A stretch of DNA of 11,421 bases from Nitrospira japonica (GCA_020725385.1 DYFC01000044.1:1-11421), one strand, 5' to 3'; numbered from the stretch's first letter, positions 4,366 through 11,421 are shown. A program made the numbers and translations. The notes: generated from the sequence alone by a model not told the origin.

Positions 4366-4395
4366 TTCACTTTTTTTATCCATGCTATATATAAT
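4366..4395 (+). promoter_or_regulatory. Possible internal sigma70 promoter for the romY-like/tkt/ftsEX operon
   Basis: TTCACT (4366-4371), 18 bp, TATAAT (4390-4395), within the 75-bp gap after glyS. Confidence 0.4.
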
Positions 4396-4436: not shown

Positions 4437-4958
4437 ATGCTTGTTGGTTTCAACACTAACATATCATATAAAAATAAGACTTTCCATGTTCAGACCGAAG
4501 ACGGAGGACCTGGTAATCCAGTAGTTATTACGCTTCTTTATTATCAGGGAGCAATACTTGCTTCCAAGAAAACAGGATATTCTGAAGTACTTAAAGACCC
4601 TGATTGTTATGCTAAGGTGGCAAAATTAATGAAAATTCAGCATAAAGGTGTAATAAGGGATCTGCTCTCGGGTAAATATACAGAGAATATGGATGTCGGA
4701 CAAGAAGAGAAGGCAGAAAAGTCTGATGAATCTGCAAGTATAAAAATAGTTAAGGAGACAAATACCGAACAATCAGAGTTAGATAGCACGGAAAAAACTC
4801 TTGAAGAGCAATTGATTGAAGAAGTTCCTGTAAATGAAGAAATGCAGATTCATGAGATTGAGCCAGCAAAGCAGGAAAAGTCAGAAGTTAAAAAACATCA
4901 ATTGACCAACGGACTTGATGATATTCTTTTAAATTTCATTATGAAAAGGACTAAATGA
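4437..4958 (+). CDS. RomY-like protein: conserved N-terminal domain, acidic low-complexity linker, short conserved C-terminal helix
   Basis: N-terminal GFNTNI.YK.K.FHVQTEDGG..NP.VIT.L...GAILASKKT.Y...LMK.QHK.VIR.L.SG.Y and C-terminal GLDDILLNFI match the architecture I recall for Myxococcus RomY (GFNHNI...YHVQTEDSG..NP.IITHLF.GG.ILASKKTSY...MEEQHK...SLDEVILSYL). It lies upstream of ftsEX. Confidence 0.7.
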   Translation: MLVGFNTNISYKNKTFHVQTEDGGPGNPVVITLLYYQGAILASKKTGYSEVLKDPDCYAKVAKLMKIQHKGVIRDLLSGKYTENMDVGQEEKAEKSDESASIKIVKETNTEQSELDSTEKTLEEQLIEEVPVNEEMQIHEIEPAKQEKSEVKKHQLTNGLDDILLNFIMKRTK

Positions 4959-5792
4959 ATGGAAGAAATTAAGACAAAACCCGATATTAAGATGCTCAAG
5001 GAAAAGGCACGTATTATAAGAATGGAAATCCTTAAAATGCTTACAGAAGCAGGCTCGGGGCATACAGGTGGCTCTTTATCCGCAGCAGATATTGTGGCTG
5101 CCCTTTATTTTTACAAAATGAAACATAAACCAGAAGACCCTTTATGGAAAGATAGGGACAGATTTATTCTATCAAAGGGACACGCAGCGCCAGTTCTTTA
5201 TGCTGCACTTGCTATAGCAGGTTATTTTGATAGGAAGTTGCTTAAAACATTACGTAAAATAGGCAGCCCGTTACAAGGACATCCATGTTCAAGAAAACTT
5301 CCGGGCGTAGAAATTTCAACAGGTTCTTTAGGACAGGGTTTATCAATAGCAAACGGGATAGCGCTGGGGTTAAAGATAAGTAAATCACCTTCAAGGGTTT
5401 ATTGTCTTCTCGGAGACGGTGAAATACAGGAAGGACAGATATGGGAAGCTGCGATGACAGCATCACATTACAATCTTGATAATCTATGTGCGATTATTGA
5501 CAATAACGGATTACAGATTGATGGCCGTTGTTGTGATGTAATGTGCATTGACCCGATTGCAAAAAAGTGGGAAGCATTTGGATGGAATGTCTTAGAGATT
5601 AACGGTCATGACATGGAAGCTATAGTTGATGCTCTTGATAGAGTGGAAATTGTTAAAGGTAAACCATCTATGATAGTTGCCCGAACAATCAAAGGGAAGG
5701 GCGTTTCATTTTTTGAAGGGAAAGTTGAATATCATGGGATAGCACCTACAAATGAAGAACTTGAAAACGCATTGAAGGAGCTTGAAATATAA
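4959..5792 (+). CDS. Transketolase, N-terminal (ThDP-binding) subunit of a split transketolase
   Basis: GHTGGSLS, DRFILSKGHA, LQGHP, STGSLGQG, ThDP motif GDGE..EGQIWEA...DNN, TIKGKG...YHG. SD AAGGA at 4946-4950. Confidence 0.95.
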   Translation: MEEIKTKPDIKMLKEKARIIRMEILKMLTEAGSGHTGGSLSAADIVAALYFYKMKHKPEDPLWKDRDRFILSKGHAAPVLYAALAIAGYFDRKLLKTLRKIGSPLQGHPCSRKLPGVEISTGSLGQGLSIANGIALGLKISKSPSRVYCLLGDGEIQEGQIWEAAMTASHYNLDNLCAIIDNNGLQIDGRCCDVMCIDPIAKKWEAFGWNVLEINGHDMEAIVDALDRVEIVKGKPSMIVARTIKGKGVSFFEGKVEYHGIAPTNEELENALKELEI

Positions 5793-6763
5793 TGGGTGAA
5801 AGACAAGAAAAAAAACAGGAAAAGGAAGTTTCTCAGAAAATAGCAACAAGAGATGCATATGGAGATGCATTGCTTGAACTCGGAAAAATAAGGGAAGATG
5901 TAGTTGTTCTTGATGCTGATCTTTCCGGTTCAACAAAGACCAAAAAGTTTGCAAAACAATTTCCTGAAAGATTTTTCAATATAGGCATATCGGAGCAGGA
6001 TATGATCGGAACAGCGAGCGGTTTGTCTTTAACAGGCAAGTTACCTTTTGCTTCGACTTTTGCTGTGTTTGAGACAGGCAGAGCATGGGAACAGATCAGG
6101 CAAACTGTATGTTATTCGAAATTGAATGTGAAACTTGTTGCAACTCATAGCGGTATTACAGTTGGTGAAGATGGAGCATCCCATCAGGCAATAGAAGATG
6201 TCGCTTTAATGAGAGTATTGCCTAACATGACTGTTATTGTGCCTGCGGATGGTTATGAAACAAAACAGGTTATTTATTCTATTGCCGATTATTCGGGTCC
6301 GGTATATGTACGTTTAGGCAGATCTAAAGTTCCTGTTGTAATGCCATCTAATTATGAATTTCAGATTGGTAAATCCTATGCTTTTCACATCGGAAGCGAT
6401 GTTAATATTGTTGCAATGGGCATCATGGTATCTATTGCTCTTGATGCTGCAAAAATACTGAAAGAAAACGGCATTGATGCCGGGGTAATTAATATGTCAA
6501 CAGTCAAACCACTTGATAATGAAATGCTTCTTGAAATATCTAAGAAAAGTAAACTCATTGTAACAGCAGAGGAACATTCTATTATCGGAGGGCTTGGTAG
6601 CGCTGTATGTGAATTCCTTTCGGAAAATAATCCTGTCAGAGTAATAAGAATTGGAATAAAAGATAATTTTGGCTGTTCGGGTTCTCCTTCCGAGCTTTTA
6701 AAACTATATGGTTTAACCGCAGATAATATTGTTAAAACAATCACTGAATTATTAAATAAATAA
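5792..6763 (+). CDS. Transketolase, C-terminal (pyrimidine-binding and C-terminal domain) subunit
   Basis: ATRDAYG, LDADL..ST, FFNIGISEQ, RAWEQIR, GEDGASHQ, GPVYVRLGR, VKPLD, EEH..IGGLGSAV. TAATG overlap with the N-terminal subunit gene. Confidence 0.95.
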   Translation: MGERQEKKQEKEVSQKIATRDAYGDALLELGKIREDVVVLDADLSGSTKTKKFAKQFPERFFNIGISEQDMIGTASGLSLTGKLPFASTFAVFETGRAWEQIRQTVCYSKLNVKLVATHSGITVGEDGASHQAIEDVALMRVLPNMTVIVPADGYETKQVIYSIADYSGPVYVRLGRSKVPVVMPSNYEFQIGKSYAFHIGSDVNIVAMGIMVSIALDAAKILKENGIDAGVINMSTVKPLDNEMLLEISKKSKLIVTAEEHSIIGGLGSAVCEFLSENNPVRVIRIGIKDNFGCSGSPSELLKLYGLTADNIVKTITELLNK

Positions 6764-6767
6764 TAAA

Positions 6768-7430
6768 ATGATAACCTTTGAGAATGTATCCAAATTCTAT
6801 GACAATCAGACTGCTTTAAGAAAAATAAGCTTTTCAGTTGAAAGAGGGGAAATGGCTTTTATAACAGGGCCAAGCGGTTCGGGAAAAACAACAATGCTCA
6901 AGCTTATTTATATGGCTGAAAAAGCTGATGAAGGCAGAATCAACGTGAATGATATGGAGCTTTCACAATTAAGAGAATCGGATGTCCCGGTTTTAAGAAA
7001 AAACATAGGTATTGTTTTTCAGGATTTCAGGCTTCTTGATAATATTAATGTCTTTGAAAATGTGGCTATTGCATTAAGAATAAGAGGGGTAGATGAAAGA
7101 GAAGTCAAATCAAAGGTGTTTGATGCTCTAAAACTTGTTAGTTTAAGACATAAGACAGATAGCTATCCAACTGCTTTATCCGGTGGTGAACAACAAAGGG
7201 TAGCTATTGCAAGAGCAATAGTCTCCGAGCCTGTAATTATACTTGCCGATGAACCAACCGGAAATGTTGACCCGGATACTTCTGCAGGTATTATAAGAAC
7301 CTTCAAAGAGATAAATGCAAGGGGTACAACGATACTTCTTGCAACTCATAACCGTGAACTTTTCAAGAATTCAGGCAAACGTGTGCTCAAGCTTGATTTC
7401 GGGAATTTTGCGGGTGAGGAGATAGGTTAA
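6768..7430 (+). CDS. ftsE: Cell division ATP-binding protein FtsE
   Basis: Walker A GPSGSGKTT, Q-loop IGIVFQDFRLL, signature LSGGEQQRVAIARA, Walker B/D-loop ILADEPTGN. Adjacent to ftsX. Confidence 0.95.
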   Translation: MITFENVSKFYDNQTALRKISFSVERGEMAFITGPSGSGKTTMLKLIYMAEKADEGRINVNDMELSQLRESDVPVLRKNIGIVFQDFRLLDNINVFENVAIALRIRGVDEREVKSKVFDALKLVSLRHKTDSYPTALSGGEQQRVAIARAIVSEPVIILADEPTGNVDPDTSAGIIRTFKEINARGTTILLATHNRELFKNSGKRVLKLDFGNFAGEEIG

Positions 7431-8305
7431 TGTCAATGTCATATTCATTCAGACTTGCTTTTCAGAGCATTATTCGTGACAAATGGGTTAATCTTCTTGC
7501 TGTACTAACTATTGCAGCAGGACTGCTTTTTACTGCAGTTACTGTGTTGACTGTTTTTAATGTTAATTTAATTACAAGGGAAATCCCAAAAAAATTTTCG
7601 GTTAATGTATATCTAAAAGAAAACCTCCAAAAACAGGAAATAGATAATATTACCGCTACAATAAAGAAAGAACCTTCTGTTGAAAATATTAAATTCATAC
7701 CTAAGGAAGATGCATGGAAAGAATTAAAATCAAGCCTTAAGAATACAGAATACATTCTTGAAGGATTAAACGAAAATCCATTACCGGATACACTGGAAAT
7801 CAAACTAAAGAAAGATTCTATAAACCCGGATGCTGTTAAAAAAATTTCTACAATGTTGAAACAGATCAAAGGTGTTAGTGAAATAGAATATGGAGAAAAA
7901 TTTCTTTCATCAATTTATTCATTGAGTCTCGGGATAAAAACAATCGGTTTGACTTTGATTATCATAATGTCTGCGGGTACACTTTTTGTTTGTTATAGCA
8001 CTGTAAAAATACTTTTTTACCGTAAGAATCGGGAAATCGAGACATATAAATTCCTGGGAGCAACTAAATGGTTTATAAGGTTTCCATTTCTTATAGAAGG
8101 TGCAACAATAGGCCTTTGCGGTGGATTTCTCGGACTCTTGGGTCTTCTTATCCTGTATTATTTTGTACTGCTTAAAGTAGGCAGTACATTCCCGATATTC
8201 AGTTCTTTTGTGTTTCCTTTAAATATGTCTTACTTATTACCTGCAACAGGCTTTGTTCTTGGAGTAATAGGTGCTGTTATTGCTATCGGAAGAATACGTT
8301 ATTAA
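7430..8305 (+). CDS. ftsX: Cell division permease-like protein FtsX
   Basis: TM1, a periplasmic domain (VYLK, ENPLPD), three further TM segments and REIE..K.LGAT.WFIR.PFLIEG. TAATG overlap with ftsE. Confidence 0.95.
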   Translation: MSMSYSFRLAFQSIIRDKWVNLLAVLTIAAGLLFTAVTVLTVFNVNLITREIPKKFSVNVYLKENLQKQEIDNITATIKKEPSVENIKFIPKEDAWKELKSSLKNTEYILEGLNENPLPDTLEIKLKKDSINPDAVKKISTMLKQIKGVSEIEYGEKFLSSIYSLSLGIKTIGLTLIIIMSAGTLFVCYSTVKILFYRKNREIETYKFLGATKWFIRFPFLIEGATIGLCGGFLGLLGLLILYYFVLLKVGSTFPIFSSFVFPLNMSYLLPATGFVLGVIGAVIAIGRIRY

Positions 8306-8306
8306 A

Positions 8307-9500
8307 ATGCTCATAAGATTGTCTTTGACTCTAAGTAGAAATCTTTGTTTTAGAAAATTTAAATATTTATTCTTAATTATTTTACTATCTTTTATTTCAT
8401 TGCCTGTATGTTTTGCTGAGACAGCCCATGATGAATACAGAAAGATTCAAAAGGAAATCAGCAAGCAGAAAAAGAAAATCGAGGAAATAAAACACCATGA
8501 ATCTTCCATACTTTTTGAGATTGAAAATATCAATAAACAGATAAAACAGGCAGAAGAGCAACTTAAAAAATATAAAGACAGACTTTCTGAAACTGAATCA
8601 AAAATATCAAAATTGGAAGCCGAGATTAACAATCATTTAAAAAATATCCAGAGACACAAAGACTGGTTGAAAAGAAAACTCAATGCTATTCACAGACATG
8701 GGAACTATTCAGATACATTAATGTTGCTGTTAACTTCTGAAGACATTTCACAATTGATCCGCACGGGTAAATACCTTCAATATATTTCTGTTTATGAACA
8801 TAATCTGATCGAAAATTACAAAAATAGTTTGCAGGAACTTACCGAAAAAGAAAAGCGTCTTCACGGATTAAAGAAAGAACTTGAAAATAATCAGAAAAAG
8901 GTTAAATCAGAAGAAGAAAATCTCGCTGAAAAAAAGAATCAGAAAGAAACCATGCTTTCTACAGTACGAAGACAACATGATTCACATAAAAGAGTTCTTA
9001 AAGAATTGCAGGACGCTTCAAATAGAATACTGGAAATTATAAGAGAGTCGGAAAGAAAAGAGAAAGGTAAGGAATATGTTCCTGAGGGCGTAGAATTTGC
9101 AAAACTTAAAGGCAAATTGCCATGGCCTGTTGAAGGTAAGGTTGCTTTGCCTTATGGGTCACAGAAAGACCCGCAATTTAATACCCCTATTTTTAGAAGC
9201 GGCGCTTTTATACAATCAATATCGGATACCTATGCGAAAGCAGTGTACACAGGTAAAGTCGTGTTTGCCGAATGGTTTAAAGGATACGGACAACTTGTTA
9301 TAATTAATCACGGAGATGGTTATCACACACTTTATGGAAGTTTATCCGAGATTTTTATTAAAGTTGGAGATATAATAAAAAGTAAGCAAGTTATCGGAAA
9401 AATAGGGATGTCCGGATTGATGAACTCCCCCGGGCTTTATTTTGAGTTAAGATATAAAGGAAAACCTTTGGACCCGTTACAGTGGCTGCAGAGGAGATAG
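8307..9500 (+). CDS. envC: Murein hydrolase activator EnvC (coiled coil plus degenerate M23/LytM domain)
   Basis: Signal peptide, long coiled coil, then KGKLPWPVEG...GYGQLVII.HG.GY.TLY...LYFELR..G.P.DP. The Zn ligands are lost (HxxxD reads RSGAF; HxH reads GLY). The likelier start is ATG 8307, 1 nt after the ftsX stop, rather than GTG 8271. Confidence 0.9.
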   Translation: MLIRLSLTLSRNLCFRKFKYLFLIILLSFISLPVCFAETAHDEYRKIQKEISKQKKKIEEIKHHESSILFEIENINKQIKQAEEQLKKYKDRLSETESKISKLEAEINNHLKNIQRHKDWLKRKLNAIHRHGNYSDTLMLLLTSEDISQLIRTGKYLQYISVYEHNLIENYKNSLQELTEKEKRLHGLKKELENNQKKVKSEEENLAEKKNQKETMLSTVRRQHDSHKRVLKELQDASNRILEIIRESERKEKGKEYVPEGVEFAKLKGKLPWPVEGKVALPYGSQKDPQFNTPIFRSGAFIQSISDTYAKAVYTGKVVFAEWFKGYGQLVIINHGDGYHTLYGSLSEIFIKVGDIIKSKQVIGKIGMSGLMNSPGLYFELRYKGKPLDPLQWLQRR

Positions 9501-9515
9501 AATTTGGAGGAAAAG

Positions 9516-10823
9516 ATGTTTCAAAGATTTAATAACAGAAGAACTTTAATAACCATATTACTCATTTTTCTTATTGCATCAACTGGATTTATAATAGGCC
9601 GATGGACTATAAGTATTGTTGGCGCCGAAGAAGGCTATGAAGAACTGAAAATATTCAGTGAAGCTCTATCGATTGTTAAGAAAAATTATGTTGAAGAAGT
9701 AAAACCAAAGGAGATTATATATGGTGCAATTAAAGGCATGCTCAGTTCCCTTGATCCACACTCGGCTTTTATGACTCCTGAACAGTACAAAGAAATGCAG
9801 GTTGATACAAAGGGAGAATTTGGAGGACTCGGGATACAAATAGGAATTAAAGAAGGTATGCTCACTGTTATTGCGCCTATTGAGGATACCCCGGCATATC
9901 GTGCAGGGATTAAGGCAGGAGATAAGATTATAAAGATAAACAATGAATTTACTAAAGATATGAATCTTCATGATGCTGTAAGCAAAATGAGAGGTGCTCC
10001 TTCAACATCAGTAAAAATAACAATACTTCGTGAAGGCTGGAAAGAGACAAAGGATTTCACAATAGTAAGAGAGATAATAAAGATCAAGAGTATAAAATTC
10101 AAGGAATTGGAAGAAGGAATCGGTTATATAAAAATAAATCAATTTCAAGAACAGACATCATCGGATCTCTCAAATGCTATTGAAGAATTAATGAAAAAAA
10201 ATATAACTTCACTTGTTCTTGACCTCAGAAATAACCCGGGCGGACTACTTAACAGCGCTGTTGACGTCTCAAGTCAATTCCTTACAGCCGGCAAGTTAGT
10301 TGTATATATTAAGGATAGAAAAGGGGATAAGGTAGAATATAAAAGCGGAAAGCACAAAACTAATTTTAATCTTCCAATGATCGTACTTGTTAATCAGGGA
10401 AGTGCAAGCGCTTCCGAGATAGTAGCCGGAGCTCTTAAAGACTGGAATAGAGCAGTAATTCTGGGGACACAAACATTTGGAAAAGGCTCTGTCCAATCGG
10501 TTGTGCCTTTAGGTGATGGCTCTGCTTTAAGATTAACTACAGCTCGGTACTATACTCCAAAGGGCATATCAATTCAGACAACAGGAATAACCCCTGATAT
10601 AATTGTGAAACCCGAAGTAAAAGAGGGTGAAAAAACAAGACCTGCAATAAGAGAAAAGGACCTTGAGAAACATCTGAAAAATGGTGATATTGAAGACAAA
10701 ACAGATGAACCGGATGAGATGATACCTGTTGAGATTGATGAAAAAAATGATATTCAGTTACAGAGGGCTATTGATATATTGAAGACCTGGAAGATATTTA
10801 AAGAACTTCCAAAAGCATCTTAA
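9516..10823 (+). CDS. ctpA: Carboxy-terminal processing protease, peptidase S41A with PDZ domain
   Basis: N-terminal TM/signal segment, LDPHS, PDZ GEFGGLGI...TPA.RAGI.AGD.I, LDLRNNPGGLL, catalytic Ser in SASASE and Lys in TFGKGSVQ, TARYYTP.G, GITPD. SD GGAGG (9506-9510) supports ATG 9516 over TTG 9504. Confidence 0.95.
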   Translation: MFQRFNNRRTLITILLIFLIASTGFIIGRWTISIVGAEEGYEELKIFSEALSIVKKNYVEEVKPKEIIYGAIKGMLSSLDPHSAFMTPEQYKEMQVDTKGEFGGLGIQIGIKEGMLTVIAPIEDTPAYRAGIKAGDKIIKINNEFTKDMNLHDAVSKMRGAPSTSVKITILREGWKETKDFTIVREIIKIKSIKFKELEEGIGYIKINQFQEQTSSDLSNAIEELMKKNITSLVLDLRNNPGGLLNSAVDVSSQFLTAGKLVVYIKDRKGDKVEYKSGKHKTNFNLPMIVLVNQGSASASEIVAGALKDWNRAVILGTQTFGKGSVQSVVPLGDGSALRLTTARYYTPKGISIQTTGITPDIIVKPEVKEGEKTRPAIREKDLEKHLKNGDIEDKTDEPDEMIPVEIDEKNDIQLQRAIDILKTWKIFKELPKAS

Positions 10824-10863: not shown

Positions 10864-10897
10864 ATTCCCCTTAAGAGGTGGATTAAGGGATTGTGTT
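10864..10897. repeat. Short palindromic REP-like element (decayed); may also act as the terminator stem of the ctpA operon
   Basis: ATTCCCCTTAAGAGGTGGATTAAGGGATTGTGTT, with stem CCCTTAA (10868-10874) / TTAAGGG (10883-10889). It is a GC-richer patch in an AT-rich spacer. Confidence 0.45.
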
Positions 10898-11018: not shown

Positions 11019-11421
11019 ATGTCAAAGAGAACGTTTTTCATTTTTTTTCTGCTAACTATTTTAGCAATTCCCACAATAGCGATGGGCTCATACAATTCAT
11101 TTCAATATCCGTCATTGCCTTCATTCAATGAAAATAATTCAAATGGAATGTTTGATGTTTATGTAGAAAAAGGAGGCGAATGGAAGAACGCTGGCAGATT
11201 AAGTTTCGATAAATACTTCAGACAGAAGGAAATAGATATAAAGAACTACACAAATAGTAATTTAATAAAGATAAAACTTATAAAGACAGGCAGCGGCATG
11301 GCGCATATTGATTCGGCATTATTAGACAATGAGCCACCTGTTAAAATTAACACTTATGACAGGTTGAATAAATTAAAAGAGAATGATTTTGATGTTATAG
11401 ATGCATCAAATAAAGAGATAG
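11019..11421 (+). CDS. 5' part of a secreted hypothetical protein (runs off right edge)
   Basis: SD AAGGAGG (11007-11013), ATG 11019, open for 134 codons to the window end: MSKRTFFIFFLLTILAIPTIAMG-SYNSFQYPSLPSFNENNSNGMFDVYVEKGGEWKNAGRLSFDKYFRQKEID... Sec-type signal peptide. Not in the ORF track. Confidence 0.85.
   Translation, partial: MSKRTFFIFFLLTILAIPTIAMGSYNSFQYPSLPSFNENNSNGMFDVYVEKGGEWKNAGRLSFDKYFRQKEIDIKNYTNSNLIKIKLIKTGSGMAHIDSALLDNEPPVKINTYDRLNKLKENDFDVIDASNKEI

Follow-up and report, generated by a model that had tools for sequence, protein, structure and literature searches.

A RomY-like gene ahead of split transketolase and ftsE-ftsX genes in a Nitrospirota genome that encodes MglA and MglB

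The romY-like gene and the genes that follow it

Previous work on Myxococcus xanthus described RomY (MXAN_5749), a 188-aa protein with a conserved region at residues 8–89 and a partly conserved C-terminal motif, which stimulates the GTPase-activating protein (GAP) activity of MglB in vitro; residues 1–89 carry most of that activity (PMC9481161). Here we describe a RomY-like gene in a stretch of 11,421 nt from Nitrospira japonica (GCA_020725385.1 DYFC01000044.1:1-11421). This whole stretch, referred to below as the window, is contig C42 of the genome (G000; GC about 35%). The gene starts with ATG, occupies positions 4437–4958 on the + strand, and encodes a protein of 173 aa. The nearest named relatives of the host are Nitrospirota and Thermodesulfovibrionales metagenome-assembled genomes (MAGs), in keeping with an earlier first-pass annotation of the window, which had placed the host outside the myxobacteria.

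The 173-aa protein matched the NCBIfam model NF053858 (RomY_Nterm, "RomY N-terminal domain-containing regulatory protein") with E 2.8e-30 and 104.6 bits against a cut-off of 50. The match covered 82/83 model positions, with protein residues 1–82 (4437–4682, +) aligned to model positions 1–82 of 83, and a RomY_Nterm search of the entire genome gave the same result for 4437–4958. The first-pass annotation had proposed RomY, and the profile match bears this out; judged by its sequence, the protein is a member of the M. xanthus RomY family. Pfam returned no family for it. In one protein search with the open reading frame (ORF), 478/511 candidates reached E ≤ 1e-3, and an exhaustive search matched 2559 cluster representatives (clusters of 50% identity) at E ≤ 1e-3, 773 of which also reached E ≤ 1e-10.

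The motifs HVQTED, ILASKKT, LMKIQHK and the terminal LDDILLNFI, together with the compact N-terminal domain of about 80 residues, the acidic linker and the final helix listed in the first-pass annotation, were all found in the ORF and in an AlphaFold2 model made with a 40-homologue alignment as input. In the model, residues 1–80 (pLDDT about 97) form strands at 5–11, 14–22, 29–36 and 39–47, a short helix at 49–53 and a long helix at 57–77. The linker, approximately residues 85–158 on the + strand, is acidic and disordered as judged from composition and low pLDDT: its 74 residues include 21 D+E versus 9 K+R, and residues from about 90 to 160 have pLDDT values of 54–69. The C-terminal helix at residues 160–172 (4914–4952, +), which carries LDDILLNFI, falls within a block of pLDDT 88. 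Among the 40 diverse homologues, G4, N6, H17, Q19, T20, E21, D22, G24, G38 and Y48 are invariant and QHK is nearly so, the linker is unconserved, and most of the proteins end in the motif S-L-D-[DE]-x-I-L-x-Y-L, which a regular expression detected in 63/80 of the loci surveyed below. By alignment, model and regular expression, the protein is like RomY in being small and free-standing, in its variable linker, and in a C motif that is conserved in part. Among solved structures we found no clear counterpart of the predicted fold and claim none: a Foldseek search of the PDB gave nothing at E ≤ 1e-3 (best, PUR-alpha repeats at E 0.07), and the best Z score of a wide VIA-align fold search, 6.3, lay inside that tool's common or noise range.

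Six + strand genes follow romY closely, at measured spacings of -1 to 15 nt, as had been annotated. The first two encode the halves of a split transketolase: tktN (4959–5792, 277 aa; PF00456, 205.8 bits) covers positions 8–280 of the 627 in NF004559, and tktC (5792–6763, 323 aa; PF02779, 167.6 bits; PF02780, 110.5 bits) covers positions 308–625, so that two adjoining genes account for both halves of the model. Next are ftsE (6768–7430, 220 aa; TIGR02673 FtsE, 282 bits, cut-off 264.85) and ftsX (7430–8305, 291 aa), whose product exceeded the cut-offs of both PF18075 FtsX_ECD (79 bits) and PF02687 (47.2 bits), scored 214 bits against TIGR00439, below its cut-off of 255, and is the sole FtsX_ECD match of the whole genome. 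The gene at 8307–9500 (alternative GTG start at 8271) encodes an EnvC-like coiled-coil M23 (LytM) protein (PF01551, 88.6 bits); its top NCBIfam match was EnvC NF008644, at 131.3 bits and below the cut-off of 270. The ATPase FtsE, an FtsX that has its extracellular domain, and a LytM/M23 partner with a coiled coil thus stand together, as in modules of the FtsEX-EnvC type. The last gene, ctp (9516–10823; alternative TTG start at 9504), has GGAGG directly before the ATG at 9516 and encodes an S41 C-terminal processing protease of the Ctp/Prc type (TIGR00225 prc, 371.3 bits, cut-off 218.6; PF03572, 205.3 bits, plus PDZ).

The gaps from romY through tktN, tktC, ftsE, ftsX and envC to ctp are 0, -1, 4, -1, 1 and 3 nt, the last being 15 nt if counted from the ATG at 9516. 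Spacing outside this run is wider, 75 nt to the upstream glyS and 195 nt to the next downstream ORF. By pattern match, a promoter-like site (TTCACT, 18-nt spacer, TATAAT; 10/12 in a consensus scan) lies at 4366–4395 (+) in the glyS-romY gap, and a hairpin that may mark the operon end (7 pairs, weak T tail) lies at 10868–10889 (+), 45 nt past the ctp stop; the pattern scan found no terminator-like + strand site in any of the short gaps between the genes. From the spacing, romY is very probably co-transcribed with tktN-tktC-ftsE-ftsX-envC-ctp. The operon's split transketolase is not the only transketolase of the genome, because an unsplit transketolase-family gene (contig C68, 2072–2860, -; 630-aa frame) is also present. 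An H-x-H motif is typical of active M23 peptidases; the EnvC-like protein of the window reads L-Y-F-E-L at that stretch, which would fit a non-catalytic activator like EnvC.

Polarity genes and the distribution of RomY in Nitrospirota

The first-pass annotation had suggested an MglA/MglB/RomY polarity switch as one of two possible roles, and the genome supports that branch. Adjacent genes on contig C13 encode MglB (164 aa, roadblock domain) and MglA (195 aa, GTPase), the former matching M. xanthus MglB (PDB 6h5b_B) with E 6.5e-61 and the latter M. xanthus MglA (PDB 6h17_A) with E 2.7e-101 over residues 1–192 of 194. A second roadblock protein of 118 aa, an MglC homologue (PDB 7ct3_A, E 8.8e-20), is encoded on the same contig (L004, 1486–1842, +). 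The gene just before it (L004, 282–1499, +) encodes a 405-aa protein with TPR-like N- and C-terminal parts and a long acidic middle, which could be a polarity scaffold. A search for type IV pilus genes, which the first-pass annotation had advised, found a full pilus cluster on contig C31, in which two PilB proteins, PilT, PilM and PilQ were all above curated cut-offs.

A RomR-like candidate of 329 aa (contig C60; L009, 2757–3746, -) was picked out by architecture only and stands unconfirmed: it consists of REC, an acidic, proline-containing disordered stretch, and two Trp-bearing C-terminal helices with a repeated W-E-x-x-P-D-L motif. In M. xanthus, W394 in RomR's C-terminal helix binds MglC (PMC12719032). 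The C-terminal part of the candidate had no relative in the PDB, and NCBIfam gave generic receiver matches only. The genome also has a second MglA-like match at E ≤ 1e-40, for a total of two. Many Nitrospirota carry a second MglA-like gene that is about 60–64% identical to MglA, has an open frame of about 308 aa or more, and looks like a paralogue of MglA extended at its N-terminus.

To ask which genes RomY accompanies within the phylum, 251 evenly drawn Nitrospirota genomes were searched, with presence defined for RomY by the RomY_Nterm cut-off or E ≤ 1e-3, for MglA by a match to the host's own protein at E ≤ 1e-40, and for FtsE by E ≤ 1e-65. The sampled relatives are not independent, and non-detection is not proof of absence. 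RomY_Nterm exceeded its cut-off in 116/251 genomes and reached E ≤ 1e-3 in 117/251; MglA was found in 133/251 and FtsE in 198/251. MglA was present in 116 of the 117 RomY-positive genomes. By family, neither RomY nor MglA was detected in f6 (0/10 each), f7 (0/5), f22 (0/39), f23 (0/28) or f25 (0/17), while FtsE was found in every sampled member of f6 (10/10), f7 (5/5), f22 (39/39) and f25 (17/17). Where MglA was universal, RomY was common: 53/60 versus 60/60 for MglA in f18, 9/12 versus 12/12 in f16, 10/11 versus 11/11 in f21, and 7/7 for both in f17. FtsE was found in 0/7 genomes of f17 at E ≤ 1e-65 and likewise in 0/3 of f26, a family with RomY and MglA; the RomY-less family f3 had FtsE in 17/19. 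In sum, across the 251 genomes the presence of RomY tracks MglA, not FtsE. Co-occurrence with both MglA and MglB was seen in the window's own genome, as the mglB-mglA pair; across the phylum MglA was the partner profiled.

The DNA upstream of ftsE was then compared in ten RomY-less genomes (f6, f3, f7 and f22). Four of these, relatives from the same order as the host (L095–L098; f6 and f3), keep tktN-tktC-ftsE, and upstream of their tktN there is no romY; the position is held by a divergent gene or by an unrelated phosphoribosyltransferase or HhH-GPD glycosylase. The six genomes of f7 and f22 have ftsE without tkt. Such a pattern would be expected of a romY that is functionally part of the MglA switch and disappeared together with that switch, the remainder of the operon being retained.

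Gene order across phyla and other contexts of the RomY N-domain

The first-pass annotation stated that romY lies next to ftsEX in M. xanthus and called for a survey of this synteny across phyla. A scan of one genome per species found at least 597 relatives, and the window proteins were mapped by tblastn on the best 80 loci; 71 of these loci have at least 1.5 kb of downstream sequence. Of these, 30/71 have a same-strand ftsE downstream of romY, in most cases with ftsX, then envC, then ctp after it. The tktN-tktC pair is directly downstream of romY in 17/71, both tkt and ftsE are downstream in 9/71, all Nitrospirota, and neither is in 33/71. Among Nitrospirota-labelled loci with at least 1.5 kb downstream, 18/19 have ftsE. 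Outside that phylum, the Myxococcota loci L061, L068 and L090 (the last from the complete genome of Archangium minus) have romY-ftsE-ftsX-M23, then ctp. The synteny does not extend to every group: no sampled locus labelled Desulfuromonadales, Geobacter or Acidobacteriota has a same-strand ftsE after romY. In Desulfuromonadales (L035, L036, L038, L044 and similar loci) the order is murI, a GerM-domain gene, (metH), romY, a HAMP histidine kinase and a sigma-54 response regulator; in six other loci of that group (L046, L066, L067, L085, L087 and L088) tktN-tktC follows romY instead. In the Acidobacteriota, Aminicenantes and Omnitrophota loci, polA follows romY. A gene of about 800 aa upstream of romY in Desulfuromonadales, considered as an FtsX-type permease, was rejected on being identified as methionine synthase. 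At none of the 80 loci is glyS beside romY.

Of the 79 Nitrospirota genomes with both genes listed (the stronger RomY matches, down to 79 bits, and 150 FtsE matches), 72 carry ftsE downstream of romY, on its contig and its strand; the distance is 24–325 nt in 16 of the 72 and 1.9–3.3 kb in 56, the latter fitting tkt between the two. In Myxococcota, RomY exceeded the cut-off in 114/151 genomes, and among the 103 for which RomY and FtsE matches above cut-off were listed, ftsE lies no more than 8 kb downstream in 45 (39 of them within 1 kb) and not in the remaining 58. The romY-(tkt)-ftsEX linkage is real in the sampled Nitrospirota and in part of the sampled Myxococcota. Linkage in myxobacteria is thus directly seen in A. 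minus and in these 45 genomes; for M. xanthus itself the support is indirect only, MXAN_5747, two genes from romY, being counted among ATP-binding cassette (ABC) transporter subunit ORFs (PMC4103005).

An N-domain tree made by a quick method (88 columns, many unresolved forks) follows taxonomy, and the gene contexts are lineage-specific. The order romY then transketolase recurs in three phyla. Nitrospirota and Desulfuromonadales have a split enzyme at this place, an Archangium MAG (L077) an unsplit one; within Archangiaceae, romY-tkt is found at L048 and L077. RomY copy number is one in each of four genomes checked. The notion of two Archangium paralogues, with ftsEX after one and tkt after the other, was rejected, as each of two genomes has a single copy; because of this, it is the gene order itself that differs between the two Archangium genomes.

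Other architectures contain the RomY N-domain as well. One form, of 404–473 aa, joins a MinD/ParA/FlhG-type P-loop ATPase to a RomY_Nterm domain at its C-terminus, as seen in two Nitrospirota relatives (L118, 5009–6295, -, 70.6 bits; L119, 4959–6209, -, 72.4 bits; cut-off 50). At both loci a PilZ-domain gene follows (L118, 4333–5007, -; L119, 4250–4957, -), and P-loop Pfam domains were found in 13/13 homologues of the fused C-terminal part. A RomY_Nterm search of the window's own genome found no such MinD fusion. That genome does encode a 257-aa protein with a RomY_N-like domain and a C-terminal TPR part (contig C37; L120, 1298–2071, -, equivalent to L002, 997–1770), which at 40 bits is below the cut-off; a RomY_N+TPR protein of about 250 aa is present in 10/10 same-order regions. 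A tie between this paralogue and a neighbouring MacB-type ABC transporter was considered and rejected, the two being adjacent in 1/10 of these regions. Among longer proteins a word search, which is weak evidence, found no other RomY_N fusion, and 19 longer family members had no Pfam domain. The ATPase fusion hints at a portable RomY N-domain that acts as a module on P-loop NTPase switches.

Elsewhere in the window, three tightly packed genes at 753–1722 code for a protein resembling glutaredoxin, one resembling the catalytic chain of ferredoxin:thioredoxin reductase (PF02943 at 83.5 bits, besides a weak match to a model for double-selenoprotein FtrB), and a member of the DVU0772 family. The ORFs at 391–744 (117 aa) and 11019–11420 (134 aa, open-ended, with a hydrophobic, signal-like N-terminus) matched no family. 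An Rfam scan of the window gave no family at the gathering score.

A probable MglB co-GAP, and its relation to known systems

The RomY-like protein most likely acts as a co-GAP of MglB, as in Myxococcus; we put the probability of this at about three in four. What the analysis establishes is membership of the family, the domain architecture, the occurrence in this genome of MglA, MglB, MglC and genes for type IV pili, the joint occurrence of RomY and MglA across the phylum, and the synteny. As to binding, the N-domain would contact the MglB roadblock dimer together with MglA-GTP, and its contribution would be to raise the GAP activity of MglB. In a cell that moves, or that places its type IV pili, this would help to keep MglA-GTP at a single pole. 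Docking of RomY to another shared component is the probable task of the conserved C-terminal helix. Co-transcription from the head of a conserved housekeeping operon would mean co-expression with it, and this may tie the dose of RomY to growth and division.

Several observations weigh against this reading. One RomY-positive genome, G007 (95% complete, 370 contigs), gave no MglA match, and 17 MglA-positive genomes gave no RomY match, of which 5/17 (f3 and f14) have weak MglA-like matches only. The C-terminal part of the RomR-like candidate, used as a single query, tracks MglA imperfectly: it was found in the MglA-less family f7 (5/5) and in f3 (12/19), and in f21 and f18 in only 0/11 and 14/60 genomes, respectively. 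The occurrence of the RomY N-domain with TPR or with a MinD/FlhG-type ATPase means that the domain alone is not proof of a co-GAP role. Finally, a polarity role does not explain the cross-phylum linkage of romY to ftsEX and transketolase.

That linkage invites the alternative, raised in the first-pass annotation as an older role tied to FtsEX and EnvC, that RomY is coupled functionally or physically to FtsEX-EnvC-Ctp, for example through recruitment by FtsE or FtsX to the septum so as to mark the new pole, or by modulation of the FtsE ATPase. The gene order speaks for it: romY directly heads the operon, with 0 nt to tktN and no gap above 15 nt, ftsE lies downstream in 18/19 Nitrospirota-labelled survey loci and, among the matches listed, in 72/79 Nitrospirota and 45/103 Myxococcota genomes, and the genes downstream of romY recur whereas the upstream glyS does so in 0/80 loci. 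The MinD/FlhG-type fusion adds that the RomY N-domain can partner P-loop ATPases. Phyletic distribution points the other way. The MglA-less families f6, f7, f22 and f25 have FtsE and no RomY match, same-order relatives retain tkt-ftsE without romY, and f17 and f26 have RomY and MglA but gave no FtsE match at E ≤ 1e-65. Moreover, romY and ftsE are unlinked in 58/103 Myxococcota among the matches listed, no same-strand ftsE follows romY in the sampled Desulfuromonadales, Geobacter and Acidobacteriota loci, and the C motif is kept whatever the context (by regular expression, with some near-misses recognised by eye, in 20/22 loci with ftsEX, 9/9 with tkt and 23/33 others). The metabolic tkt pair in the same operon argues further that operon membership need not mean common function. 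A complex prediction for an FtsE dimer and full-length RomY, with alignments as input, scored 0.01 against a mark of 0.32 and is not evidence either way. We consider FtsEX coupling unlikely, and the order romY-ftsEX most likely reflects shared expression or inherited order rather than an FtsEX requirement for RomY.

Slightly less probable again is the idea that the RomY-like protein regulates some other NTPase switch, either the second MglA-like protein or a MinD/ParA-type ATPase. The two MglA-like matches in the host genome, the second copies with frames of about 308 aa in many relatives, and the ATPase fusion in 13/13 homologues of the fused form would fit such a role. The window protein, however, is built like free-standing RomY, C motif included, and is neither the fused nor the TPR form, it scores 104.6 bits versus 40–72 bits for those forms, and its genome is without a MinD fusion. 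As for the ORF having arisen by chance, or serving the tkt-ftsEX operon as a leader peptide-like element whose product does nothing as a protein, the weak Shine-Dalgarno sequence before the romY ATG might be taken in its favour. It is refuted by conservation: hundreds to thousands of homologues match, and the thousands of relatives share invariant residues, so that the ORF at 4437–4958 is not a chance frame; the confident predicted fold and the existence of a curated family model agree, and we give the idea practically no weight.

There is also a speculative proposal, to which we give long odds. RomY_N may be a portable regulator of P-loop NTPase switches, and its conservation in two phyla as first gene of the ftsEX-envC-ctp operon may reflect a hand-over between division and polarity. 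RomY would be produced alongside FtsEX, which might also recruit it to the closing septum, and each new pole would then begin as the GAP-rich "rear". If this were true, recruitment by FtsEX would supply a determinant of RomY localisation, described as unknown so far (PMC12719032; PMC9481161).

The gene can be named with the current NCBI family model, and RomY outside the myxobacteria has been known since 2022. The first-pass annotation's view of an unstudied non-myxobacterial RomY therefore does not hold, homologues being already tabulated in S1 Table of PMC9481161. The non-myxobacterial entries of the table come from Aquificae, Deferribacteres, Acidobacteria, Bdellovibrio and Geobacter/Pelobacter, with none from Nitrospirota, and most genomes in it with a non-myxobacterial RomY also have MglA/MglB; the discovery of RomY was itself based on co-occurrence with RomR and RomX, and the paper states that none of the genes flanking M. 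xanthus romY had been implicated in motility (PMC9481161). Relative to this table Nitrospirota is a new phylum, to be added to those with an MglA/MglB/MglC/RomY polarity module. The joint presence and absence of RomY and MglA by family speaks for RomY belonging to the core of the switch, not for a myxobacterial add-on. The order romY-(tkt)-ftsE-ftsX-envC-ctp, common to Nitrospirota and part of Myxococcota, is a lead on how polarity may be reset at division, and the MinD/FlhG-RomY_N fusion hints at a more general action of RomY_N on positioning NTPases. We found no literature report of this cross-phylum order, its loss pattern or the fusion, in a search that covered text other than figures and bioRxiv supplements. 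No part of this overturns current understanding.

Compared with known systems, the window protein is like M. xanthus RomY in its RomY_Nterm match, its linker and C motif layout, and its co-occurrence with MglA/MglB/MglC; it differs in its Nitrospirota host of about 35% GC, in length (173 versus 188 aa), and in having a split transketolase between romY and ftsE. As in A. minus, romY lies upstream of ftsE, and the two N-domains are 50% identical over residues 2–81. The same family occurs outside the myxobacteria in Geobacter/Pelobacter, Deferribacteres, Aquificae, Acidobacteria and Bdellovibrio (PMC9481161), although, unlike the window, the Desulfuromonadales and Acidobacteriota romY loci examined have no ftsEX neighbour. 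The MglA and MglB of the genome are also like those of Thermus thermophilus, a small GTPase with a roadblock GAP, matching 3t12_A (E 1e-71) and 1j3w_A (E 1.3e-18). RomY_Nterm found no match in 14 control genomes, including T. thermophilus and Deinococcus radiodurans; MglAB systems without RomY therefore exist, as the lack of a match in T. thermophilus indicates. In Escherichia coli, FtsEX-EnvC is an amidase-activation module. The window operon resembles it in that FtsE exceeds its equivalog cut-off, FtsX has the extracellular domain, and the M23 protein has a coiled coil and EnvC as its top match, and departs from it in that FtsX and EnvC score below the E. coli-type equivalog cut-offs, an S41 Ctp gene comes after, and romY and tkt come before.

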